NCBI RefSeq assembly: GCF_029227855.1
Contig: NZ_CP074356.1
Direction: 5' to 3' (one strand)
Length of the DNA stretch: 64,000 bases
Origin: Escherichia coli
Lineage (GTDB): Bacteria > Pseudomonadota > Gammaproteobacteria > Enterobacterales > Enterobacteriaceae
Shown: piece by piece, positions 62,225-64,000 of the stretch
Layout of the letters: every line of letters begins with the position of its first letter
How positions within the stretch are numbered: position 1 is the stretch's first letter
The notes under the pieces: model-generated
Database searches by the model: none
What the model was told of the DNA's origin: nothing
Seen by the model: the letters and a program-made list of their open reading frames with translations, nothing else
Made by a program: the position numbers and the translations under genes

Positions 62225-63016
62225 TTATGCCCGGCGCATTACCGTCTGGTACATTAAGCTATCCAGTTCCTTAACGTCCCCTTCTCTGCTATCCGGTAAC
62301 AGCGGTGGAATTTCCCCACGCGCCTGTTCCGCACGAATAAACGCATGTAACAATGGACGGCGCGGACCATATTCCGCTTCTCCTGCGCGCTGTTTACGTT
62401 CCAGTAATTCGTCTATTTCTGCACGTAACGGCGCATCAAGTTCGCTTCCCGCCAGTAACTCAGCAAAGCGCATTGGCGGCACGCCTTTTCCCGCTTCGAC
62501 CCAGCGCACGGCCAGCAGCGGACGCAGCACGTAAAAGTATTTTTTCAGTCGAACTTCATCGCCCTGCAAATATCCGCGGAAGTTTTTCTGCGCCATCGAA
62601 TAGTAATGCCAGCGCGCACGCAGCGGAGAAAACCACATTGGGACCATTGCCTTAAGCGCCGTTATCGTTTCTTCATCTTGTTGATAGACCACCGGAGAAT
62701 CCAGCCATTCTATCAGCGTCGGGTTCGCGCCTTTCAATAATCCCAGCGCCTTACGCCACTCCCAACCGGAAACATCTAACTCGTCGTCGATGGGCAGCTC
62801 GATAACATCGCGCGGCGGCTCCACCCGCAGATACCATTCCAGCGGGTGAACATACAAAAACCGTACATCGTAGTCGCTGTCGGGCGAGGCAAACCCCCAG
62901 CCGCGGCTCCCGGATTCACAGGCATACAGCACTTTCACGCCGTAGCGCCGTTCTATTTCTTTTAACTGCTGCGATACCCGTTCGCGCATCGCAGCACTGA
63001 CTCCATTTAATGGCAT
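62225..63016 (-). CDS. Polymerase-beta-superfamily nucleotidyltransferase, family not assigned
   Basis: 263 aa from ATG 63016 (ORF track starts at GTG 63025); motif ESGSRGWGFASPDSDYDVRF (GS-x9-SD-x-D); SD AAAGGGTGAG contains the stop of the upstream SPFH gene. Confidence 0.7.
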   Translation of the reverse strand: MPLNGVSAAMRERVSQQLKEIERRYGVKVLYACESGSRGWGFASPDSDYDVRFLYVHPLEWYLRVEPPRDVIELPIDDELDVSGWEWRKALGLLKGANPTLIEWLDSPVVYQQDEETITALKAMVPMWFSPLRARWHYYSMAQKNFRGYLQGDEVRLKKYFYVLRPLLAVRWVEAGKGVPPMRFAELLAGSELDAPLRAEIDELLERKQRAGEAEYGPRRPLLHAFIRAEQARGEIPPLLPDSREGDVKELDSLMYQTVMRRA

Positions 63017-63021
63017 GTTAC

Positions 63022-64000
63022 TCACCCTTTGATATTAACCAACCCATGCAGAACCTGATCCAGACCGCCAAATACAGAGATGTTATCGATCCGCTCAGCC
63101 ACTCTCTCCAGCGTTTCTAGCTCTTTTAAACGCAACGCTACCGGATTGTTCTCCATGACTTTGGCGGTGTTCAGTAACGAGCGCGTCGCTGCCGTTTCTT
63201 CACGTCGGCGAATCACATTCGCCTGCGCAGATTTCTCCGCCTCAACCAGCTGCGCAAGGATATTTTTCATATCGCCAGGCAGGACGATATCTTTCACCCC
63301 TAATGAAGCAATCTCCATACCAAATGGCAACATGCGCGATTTCACCTGTTCGCTGACAACGTCATCAATGACCTGTTTATCTTCCAGCAGTTCATCCAGC
63401 GTACGAGTACCTACCGCTTCACGCAGGGCAAATTGCAATTCCCGATACAAATGATCAATCGGCTTCGTTAACTGACTAAATGCCAGCAACACGTCGCTGT
63501 AGCGCCAGTTAGCGGCGAGATTAATCCGCAGATTGACCTTATCTTTCGTTAAGATTTCTTGCCCGCTGACTTCCAGTACCTGCAAGCGGGTGTCGACAAC
63601 TTCAGCCTCAACCAGATGATTTATTTTCCAGTATGCTGTCAGCCCCGGCGGTAACAGCGCCTGCGTTTCACCATCGATTTTCAGCACGCCTACATGCCAG
63701 GCCGGAACCTGCACCGTGAGTATCGCATCGCGGCCTTTAACTGCCCCTTTGCGCCGTGGTTGCAATACCGCATTCATCACCTCCGTTTGTACCTGGACTT
63801 GCTGCGTATTCATCCGCACCAGTGTCAAATCATCTTCTACACGCCAGTACAAACGGCGCGTTGATGGCGGCAGAATCTCCAGCAAAATACCGTCCATATA
63901 CAACGCCCCGGCTTCAATCTCCGACAAGTCTGCCACCAGGCAATATTTCTCCACCCAATCAGGCTGAAAGCGGCGCAAATAATCCGCCAGCACGTCGGGA
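63022..64000 (-). CDS. SPFH/band-7 (stomatin/prohibitin-like) domain protein, 5-prime end outside the window
   Basis: Frame open to the window edge (GTG at 63993 is not necessarily the start); C-terminal ~200 aa show SPFH signatures (PPGLTAYWKI ... EILTKDKVNLRINLAANWRYSDV ... GVKDIVLPGDMKNILAQLVEAEKSAQANVIRRREETAA). Confidence 0.7.
   Translation of the reverse strand, partial: PDVLADYLRRFQPDWVEKYCLVADLSEIEAGALYMDGILLEILPPSTRRLYWRVEDDLTLVRMNTQQVQVQTEVMNAVLQPRRKGAVKGRDAILTVQVPAWHVGVLKIDGETQALLPPGLTAYWKINHLVEAEVVDTRLQVLEVSGQEILTKDKVNLRINLAANWRYSDVLLAFSQLTKPIDHLYRELQFALREAVGTRTLDELLEDKQVIDDVVSEQVKSRMLPFGMEIASLGVKDIVLPGDMKNILAQLVEAEKSAQANVIRRREETAATRSLLNTAKVMENNPVALRLKELETLERVAERIDNISVFGGLDQVLHGLVNIKG

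Follow-up and report, generated by a model that had tools for sequence, protein, structure and literature searches.

Here, we report on a pair of minus-strand genes at the end of a 64,000-nt stretch of the Escherichia coli chromosome (contig NZ_CP074356.1 of assembly GCF_029227855.1; hereafter, the window), located so that pgi, a lysine riboswitch, and lysC lie just upstream. The genes encode an SPFH/band-7 protein and a nucleotidyltransferase of the RlaP family, and they likely represent the SPFH/Band-7 and RlaP portion of an operon for RNA repair of the Rtc type, which E. coli has in a reduced form. As judged from sequence comparison with related genomes, the full form comprises a divergently transcribed rtcR, a sigma-54 promoter, a structured leader RNA that contains a tRNA mimic (called b7a-tRNA) once or twice, the SPFH gene, rtcB, and rlaP. 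The E. coli form has lost rtcR and rtcB; kept are the sigma-54 promoter, the leader with its 5' and 3' domains and a lone T-arm, the SPFH gene, and rlaP.

The finding is real and ordinary in kind: the locus belongs, in reduced form, to an RNA-repair system already described computationally and does not represent a new defence system. As far as could be checked, three aspects appear to be undocumented: the reduction of the E. coli type, in which ligase, regulator, and cloverleaf are all missing, the surviving 5' and 3' RNA domains, and the possible existence of a second RtcR-dependent operon in about 30% of strains. A part for SPFH/Band-7 proteins and tRNA-like RNAs in the repair of bacterial RNA was predicted in 2016 and is not known to have been tested. 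The stripped-down E. coli version, with the ligase and the regulator encoded elsewhere, offers tractable genetics for RtcR control in trans, for an SPFH-RNA particle, and for the action of RlaP on damaged tRNA ends in vivo.

The gene pair and its products

The SPFH gene extends past the window edge, so that its 5' end (50 codons) lies beyond position 64000, as do the promoter and the leader of ~300 nt. The missing 5' part was read in strain 165 (locus L001), which is 100% identical to the window over positions 61100–64000, as are several complete genomes; the coordinates are related as window = L001 + 46099. The annotated order in strain 165 is lysC (+), a zeta-toxin family gene (+), a nucleotidyltransferase gene (–), a gene for a 375-aa "slipin family protein" (–), a 528-bp spacer, yjbD (+), and rluF, with no additional protein gene of the operon annotated between the SPFH gene and yjbD. 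An earlier reading of the window, made from the sequence alone, had placed further parts of the system beyond the edge; this holds for the leader RNA, the sigma-54 promoter, and the 5' end of the SPFH gene, and does not hold for additional protein partners.

The last 326 codons of the SPFH gene occupy positions 63022–64000 on the minus strand. The full gene, encoding 375 aa, corresponds to L001 16923–18050 and runs from window-equivalent position 64149 to the TGA at 63022–63024; both the gene call and a match to the Band_7 family agree with the initial description of an SPFH-signature gene ending there. The rlaP gene, the last in the operon, is localized at 62225–63016 on the same strand (263 aa; ATG at 63014–63016, TAA at 62225–62227) and has the RefSeq name "nucleotidyltransferase domain-containing protein" (WP_001130538.1). 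At the gene junction AAAGGGTGAGTAACATG (63014–63034, minus strand), as read from the sequence, the SPFH TGA stands within a purine-rich stretch 5 nt before the rlaP ATG, just as had been proposed when the stop codon was placed inside the rlaP Shine-Dalgarno region and the pair was considered to be tightly coupled. An alternative GTG start of rlaP at 63023–63025 overlaps the SPFH stop codon (GTGA). The gaps between SPFH, rtcB, and rlaP genes in related loci are likewise short, at most about 10 nt.

The 263-aa protein matches the Pfam family RlaP (PF10127, E 1.6e-94) over model positions 1–248 of 249 and no other Pfam family; it also matches PHROG 14344, "nucleotidyltransferase" (E 8e-123). The motif GS-x9-SDYD, on which the polymerase-beta-type assignment was originally based, is present as ESGSRGWGFASPDSDYDVRF (also given as ESGSRGWGFASPDSDYD). 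The catalytic motif of the polymerase-beta fold (G-S ... D-x-D) is accompanied by the third acidic residue, and E. coli RlaP keeps every residue that is invariant among 11 aligned RlaPs, including G36, S37, D48, D50, and D81. By homology, the enzyme is thus assigned as a full-length RlaP, a member of a family that extends RNA 3' ends. Two Pseudomonas members of this family, from P. fluorescens and P. aeruginosa, encoded in the interval from rtcB to rtcA, extend the 3'-OH ends of RNA by one or two NMPs, favour damaged RNAs, and are required to restore aminoacylation of over-trimmed tRNA (10.64898/2025.12.29.696909). The activity has been measured for these Pseudomonas enzymes only, in one biochemical study (10.64898/2025.12.29.696909). 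Adjacency to a ligase gene, from which the family takes its name, was observed in 28 of the 33 related loci with rlaP; no ligase gene adjoins rlaP in the E. coli island, and rtcB of strain 165 is ~710 kb away.

The visible fragment of the SPFH protein matches Pfam Band_7 (PF01145, E 8.6e-24, residues 97–268 of 325), and the protein matches stomatin chains in the PDB, among them 3bk6 (E 3.7e-22). Its layout consists of three homologous beta repeats, an SPFH core, and a helix of ~60 residues. The repeats are situated at residues 1–48, 68–118, and 140–188 (hhalign probability 98–99%, E 1e-14 to 1e-16), the third being the start of the canonical SPFH domain, and the AlphaFold2 model (pLDDT 88) has helices at residues 291–353. 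No hydrophobic or transmembrane segment was found, as the maximum Kyte-Doolittle mean over 19 residues is 1.13; the N-terminus is formed by beta repeats, not by a membrane anchor or hairpin. A Foldseek search with the model retrieved stomatin, HflK/C, prohibitin, erlin, and QmcA (E 1e-15 to 1e-9), as well as the major vault protein over 420–465 columns (E ~1e-9 to 3e-10, with low TM-scores). The modelled architecture can hence be described as vault-like, and homology to the vault protein is not claimed. Among loci L017, L030–L032, L034, L036, L040, L045, and L063 and the cyanobacterial loci L068, L071, L075, L076, L078, L080, and L081, some members of the family are longer (~510–530 aa), their N-terminal beta repeats being duplicated again.

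Related operons and distribution in E. coli

The initial homology search with the SPFH protein gave only near-identical E. coli copies and no context. A search of 1.84 billion cluster representatives yielded 543 clusters with E < 1e-30, and the top matches of ~375 aa among those listed align over essentially the whole protein. Thirty-five SPFH sequences were aligned (alignment A1), and one genome per species was scanned, which resulted in 80 loci, whose neighbouring genes were identified by tblastn with known proteins and by NCBIfam.

The recurrent gene order is a divergent rtcR followed by SPFH, rtcB, and rlaP. Among the 80 loci, rtcR was found nearby in 54, rtcB in 54, and rlaP in 33. The SPFH-linked RtcR matches NF038308 above the curated cut-off (E 2e-250). 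The SPFH-linked ligase matches RtcB-family models below their curated cut-offs (best E 4.9e-133) and shows 73% identity to RtcB as annotated in E. coli. A layout with rtcR, SPFH, and rlaP and no intervening rtcB was observed in Citrobacter, Pseudocitrobacter, Superficieibacter, Mangrovibacter, and Hafnia. The E. coli SPFH protein is 74–84% identical to those of the full Enterobacteriaceae operons and 51–62% identical to those of Pseudomonas, Burkholderia, and other proteobacteria. Overall, the linkage of the SPFH gene to rtcR, rtcB, rlaP, and a tRNA-like RNA is conserved across γ- and β-proteobacteria. In several β-proteobacteria and in Aliikangiella, arrays of 4–18 apparently genuine tRNA genes were observed beside the SPFH locus (L072 7986–11697, L037 3538–5582, and also L025, L044, L046, and L047).

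In Citrobacter, Pseudocitrobacter, Enterobacter, Siccibacter, and Pluralibacter, the operon is located between yjbD and lysC, i.e., at the site of the E. coli island; in Kosakonia, yjbD adjoins the operon, and the compared stretch stops at rlaP. Since the site is the same in other genera, the E. coli island is best described as a reduced, syntenic descendant of an Rtc-type operon, not as imported defence content. Comparison with strain HB101 demonstrates that ~3.4 kb (L001 15020–18448) stands in place of ~120 bp of the K-12-type lysC-yjbD spacer. In HB101, yjbD and then rluF directly follow lysC, in agreement with the K-12 map as given in the initial reading.

Of 5426 complete E. coli genomes, 1634 carry the island, in each case in the chromosome and never on a plasmid. 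The gene pair was found in 1631 of the 5426, and in 1623 of these a single match covers at least 80% of the pair. Carriers include strain HS and many B1 and EHEC-type strains. Hence, the initial view of the genes as strain-specific accessory content is correct within E. coli, and they are not foreign to the locus, given that the operon is situated between yjbD and lysC in other Enterobacteriaceae.

The missing regulator and ligase are encoded elsewhere in the genome. Strain 165 carries an intact rtcR-rtcB-rtcA cluster at 347.8–351.9 kb, ~710 kb from the island, and its RtcR and the SPFH-linked one from Citrobacter share 62% identity, with the stretch NDADRLRKYLARFGL near the C-terminus unchanged between the two proteins. 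As rtcR is detectable in 4850 of the 5426 genomes, at least 1058 of the 1634 island carriers have it.

Promoter, leader RNA, and proposed mechanism

The sigma-54 promoter TGGCACGCTTCTCGCA upstream of the SPFH gene (L001 18350–18365, window-equivalent 64449–64464, minus strand) deviates from the consensus by one mismatch and is the sole sigma-54 match with at most one mismatch in 33 kb. Between this promoter and the SPFH start, on the same strand, comparison with related loci reveals a structured leader RNA of ~300 nt. A sigma-54 site TGGCACG-N4-T[CG]GC, followed 126–216 nt later by a T-loop GGTTCGAnTCC, was identified in 47 loci. An inverted repeat TTATC-N6/7-GATAA is conserved upstream of island-type promoters and is kept in E. 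coli (TTATC-N6-GATAA). The K-12-type empty site of HB101 (L002 1379–1630; cf. L001 18449–18578) still contains the TTATC-N-GATAA inverted repeat, and therefore the K-12 state looks like a deletion of the operon and not like the ancestral state.

The tRNA-like part of the leader differs in completeness among the compared loci. In loci from outside Enterobacterales, tRNA-like units are found in the leader, either singly or as a tandem pair; ARAGORN detects them, frequently reporting "tRNA-???" and a two-base anticodon, or else anticodons that bear no relation from one locus to the next, and in many loci the Rfam tRNA model matches them upstream of the SPFH gene. A full unit with intact acceptor and T-arms was found in about 30 related loci. 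Five enterobacterial genera retain only an acceptor-plus-T-arm minihelix, with the stem GCGAA/UUCGC, or GCAAA/UUUGC in Siccibacter. In E. coli and its closest relatives there remains only the T-arm, followed by a covarying local hairpin (CAUU/AAUG vs. CACU/AGUG); the T-loop-like sequence GGGTTCGATTCCC in the E. coli leader belongs to this T-arm, the sole remnant of the tRNA mimic. Apart from tRNA, no Rfam family, YrlA included, matches the leader RNA of E. coli or the related loci.

The remaining structure is supported by covariation. The 5' domain, comprising P1, H1, and H2 and retained in E. coli, forms together with the T-arm 23 pairs, in which 91.6% of cells are paired, compared to 76.4% in shuffled and 36–53% in slid controls. 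The covariation score is 0.50 against 0.21, and none of 500 shuffles reaches 0.50; at one of the pairs, 12 sequences have CG and another 12 have UA. The 3' domain, GGCAAAAGGG...CCCCUGUCGCUUCG (L001 18051–18120, minus strand), is situated just upstream of the SPFH ribosome-binding site and contains 22 pairs, 15 of them compensatory. Every helix of both domains is conserved in the E. coli leader. Single-sequence folding of the leader barely beats shuffles (z –1.98) and was not used as evidence.

Based on these observations, the following mechanism may be envisaged. RNA damage, e.g., tRNA cleavage by ribotoxins, would activate the sigma-54 enhancer-binding protein RtcR, encoded ~710 kb away beside rtcBA, which would then fire the island promoter in trans, with an RtcR- and sigma-54-dependent start predicted ~12 nt downstream of TGGCACGCTTCTCGC. 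The transcript would give a structured RNA and two translationally coupled proteins. SPFH proteins oligomerise, and the anchor-less SPFH protein may do so as well, making, together with the RNA, a soluble ribonucleoprotein platform. RlaP would restore one or two nucleotides on trimmed RNA 3' ends, and RtcB, supplied in trans, would then reseal the RNA. The analysis demonstrates the homologies, the conserved gene order and promoter motif, the covarying RNA structure, purifying selection, and the presence of rtcR-rtcBA in trans; the control by RtcR in trans, the binding of RNA by the SPFH protein, its soluble oligomer, and the cooperation with RtcB are what we infer here.

More tentatively, the E. 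coli module may have become a minimal, self-standing SPFH-RNA particle, in which a vault-like soluble ring or cage would be built around the 5' and 3' domains of the leader and not around a tRNA cloverleaf, with RlaP on or in the particle, and which, in about 30% of strains, RtcR would control in trans as part of its regulon. If true, such a particle in the RtcR regulon would represent a second RtcR-controlled operon, invisible to K-12 studies, and a model for the role of SPFH proteins and RNA in repair.

Somewhat less probable, and the most viable of the alternatives, is that the leader serves as a cis-acting sensor, e.g., as a decoy tRNA-like target that, on being cleaved or bound, controls translation of SPFH and RlaP, and is not a stable subunit of an SPFH particle, the proteins still functioning in RNA repair. 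The structured RNA always follows the promoter and precedes the SPFH start codon, only a few dozen nucleotides separate its 3' domain from the ribosome-binding site, and RtcR systems are described as responding to damaged tRNA; the 3' domain in particular could be a cis-regulatory element instead of a part of a stable RNA. On the other hand, the intact acceptor and T-arms of the tRNA-like units would suit processing into stable RNAs, and, by analogy, Y RNAs of rsr-rtcBA operons are described in 10.1101/312249 as stable partners of Ro proteins.

Several observations weigh against assigning the pair to a reduced RNA-repair operon with an RNA component and control in trans. Firstly, neither rtcR nor rtcB is present in cis at the E. 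coli island, and neither ARAGORN nor Rfam finds a tRNA in it, the cloverleaf being gone; the leader as a whole could be merely a cis-regulatory 5' untranslated region and not a stable RNA partner. Secondly, the element upstream of E. coli rtcBA has half-sites similar to those of the island repeat and a different spacing, and hence cross-activation by the resident RtcR is plausible at most. Thirdly, the cyanobacterial loci of the same SPFH clade have no rtc genes, sigma-54 site, T-loop, or conserved neighbours, and therefore the SPFH protein is not tied to RtcB everywhere. Finally, no experiment is known to have revealed the role of any SPFH protein in RNA repair; deletion of paFlo8, an SPFH gene of P. 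aeruginosa, had no phenotype in standard assays (PMC13086221), and the b7a-tRNA was never experimentally validated, according to 10.1101/312249.

Alternative readings, known systems, and neighbouring features

The losses described above raise the question whether the pair in E. coli has lost its function and is decaying towards a complete deletion as in K-12. Indeed, rtcR and rtcB are lost, the tRNA mimic is down to a T-arm, ~70% of E. coli genomes have nothing of the operon, and insertion sequence (IS) elements break the SPFH gene in some strains. However, comparison of the diverged alleles from L001 and L084 yields dN/dS 0.05 at dS 0.19 for the SPFH gene and dN/dS 0.04 at dS 0.40 for rlaP, with both reading frames intact in the diverged alleles examined. 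In comparison with Citrobacter, dN/dS is 0.05–0.07 for the pair and 0.05–0.06 for rlaP. Both genes are under strong purifying selection, and, because of the low dN/dS and of the largely complete pair in 1623 of 1631 genomes, a functionless remnant is unlikely. The conservation of the promoter and of all leader helices in E. coli also argues against decay, as does the persistence of the rtcB-less layout in five other genera. The IS elements in question (IS4-like ISVsa5, IS1, and IS5) are situated within or beside the SPFH gene or ezeT, the zeta-toxin gene described below, in individual strains, e.g., in strain D7.

The island as a whole is more diverged than its surroundings. Between L001 and L084, dS is 0.19 for the SPFH gene, 0.40 for rlaP, and 0.45 for ezeT, compared to 0.03 for flanking lysC and 0.05 for yjbD, which suggests either old allelic lineages or recombination from outside.

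The ezeT gene is localized between lysC and rlaP (61263–62189, plus strand). Its product, WP_000212693.1 in RefSeq, has the same accession as EzeT in PMC10532202, where its position beside aspartokinase 3 and in B1 strains is also given. EzeT has been characterised as a UDP-GlcNAc kinase toxin whose N-terminal domain acts in cis as the antitoxin, within a single polypeptide (PMC10532202). The protein encoded in the window matches PezT (2p5t, E 5e-33) over residues 82–299, after an N-terminal extension of ~80 aa. No zeta toxin was found beside the SPFH gene in any of the 80 related loci; at this site, it is specific to E. coli. Within E. coli, ezeT is present in 1433 genomes compared to 1631 for the gene pair, and ~200 genomes have the pair and no megablast-detectable ezeT. 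EzeT is thus an independent neighbour, a self-contained toxin-antitoxin, and the functional link of the pair to the zeta toxin that the sequence-only reading had suggested is not upheld. In one strain with the pair and without ezeT, ECE313 (L086 1–3499), prophage tail genes abut the 3' end of rlaP, in the usual place of ezeT.

These data also bear on the possibility, which we regard as slightly more remote than that of a remnant, that the pair, alone or with the zeta toxin, is an anti-phage, abortive-infection, or toxin-antitoxin module, in which the nucleotidyltransferase would be toxic or generate a signal, and the SPFH protein would serve for sensing or as an effector at the membrane. Such a role would agree with the accessory status of the genes (30% of genomes), with their position beside a real toxin, with the elevated dS of the island (0.19–0.45 against 0.03–0.05 in the flanks), frequent in conflict genes, and with a prophage abutting the pair in ~200 genomes (one of them, ECE313, inspected). 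Against it, PADLOC-DB 2.0 contains no family matching the SPFH protein or RlaP at E up to 0.01; the enzyme is RlaP, with no pointer to a toxin-type or cyclic-nucleotide-synthase activity; the toxin of the island has its own antitoxin domain, and none of the 80 related loci contains a zeta toxin; it is rtcR and rtcB that are conserved as partners; and the locus is syntenic across Enterobacteriaceae, with housekeeping genes on its flanks. A toxin-antitoxin, abortive-infection, or nucleotide-signalling module was accordingly rejected, by the lack of a PADLOC match, the identity of RlaP, and the rtcR and rtcB partners. What survives of the initially proposed conflict system is its broad sense, as Rtc/RlaP repair is thought to counter RNA-cleaving toxins. 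An annotation such as "slipin and nucleotidyltransferase beside a zeta toxin" resembles a defence island and is none, and hence poses a likely risk of mis-annotation.

The least credible alternative, that of a classical slipin/stomatin scaffold of membrane microdomains or a protease modulator whose adjacency to rlaP is meaningless, has on its side the RefSeq name "slipin family protein" and the nearest solved relatives (stomatin, HflK/C, prohibitin, and QmcA), and is contradicted by the lack of a hydrophobic segment, by the soluble N-terminal beta repeats, by the lack of an annotated NfeD gene nearby (the annotated neighbours being only rlaP, ezeT, and yjbD), and by the conserved linkage to rtcR, rtcB, rlaP, and the tRNA-like RNA in γ- and β-proteobacteria.

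As a reduced repair operon, the E. coli locus is closest to the systems of a Band-7 protein and a b7a-tRNA beside RtcB that were predicted by Burroughs and Aravind (2016), as described in 10.1101/312249. It shares with them the SPFH clade, the RlaP family, the sigma-54/RtcR-type promoter, and a homologous leader with a T-arm, and its genes are orthologous (74–87% identity) and syntenic to the full operons of this type in neighbouring genera. The differences are that the E. coli operon lacks rtcB and rtcR, that its tRNA mimic consists of a T-arm and a local hairpin, and that the unrelated ezeT is inserted between rlaP and lysC. In P. aeruginosa, the rtc locus (rtcR, paFlo8 = PA14_60630, rtcB, rlaP, rtcA) contains the SPFH protein PaFlo8 (PMC13086221), so that an SPFH gene and RlaP are combined in one locus, as in E. 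coli. Compared to E. coli, the identity in Pseudomonas loci is 56–57% for SPFH and 56–62% for RlaP; in contrast to E. coli, these loci have the ligase and the regulator in cis and one or two tandem tRNA-like units.

Among more distant systems, the Salmonella rsr-yrlBA-rtcBA operon is an RNA-repair system under the control of RtcR and sigma-54, with a Ro60 ring and tRNA-like Y RNAs, according to 10.1101/312249. It likewise encodes a protein scaffold and a non-coding RNA with a tRNA-like module, whereas the scaffold described here is an SPFH protein and not a Ro/TROVE ring, and the leader does not match the YrlA family. The K-12 rtcR-rtcBA operon has a sigma-54 promoter of the same type, TGGCACGACGGTTGCA, and the E. 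coli RtcR and RtcB are 62% and 73% identical to the SPFH-linked versions, respectively; in contrast to the island, it has no SPFH gene, RlaP, or leader RNA, and its promoter is ~50 nt from the rtcB start codon. The eukaryotic vault (the major vault protein and vault RNA) has the same domain order, i.e., N-terminal beta repeats, an SPFH-like domain, and a long helix; both the vault and the SPFH system go with a small RNA.

Between the convergent ezeT and rlaP genes, a GC-rich hairpin CGCCGGGCTTTATGCCCGGCG (62216–62236) is located, with the rlaP stop codon in its loop. It is probably a bidirectional terminator. It was not listed by the terminator scan, having no T run within the rule of the scan, and it is the stem-loop behind a sub-threshold Rfam match to SorX on both strands. 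The lysine riboswitch upstream of lysC (59481–59677, L001 13382–13578, plus strand) is annotated in the strain 165 record. Outside the window, a type III effector gene of the ShET2/EspL2 family is annotated in strain 165 between iclR and aceK (L001 27591–29165, plus strand).

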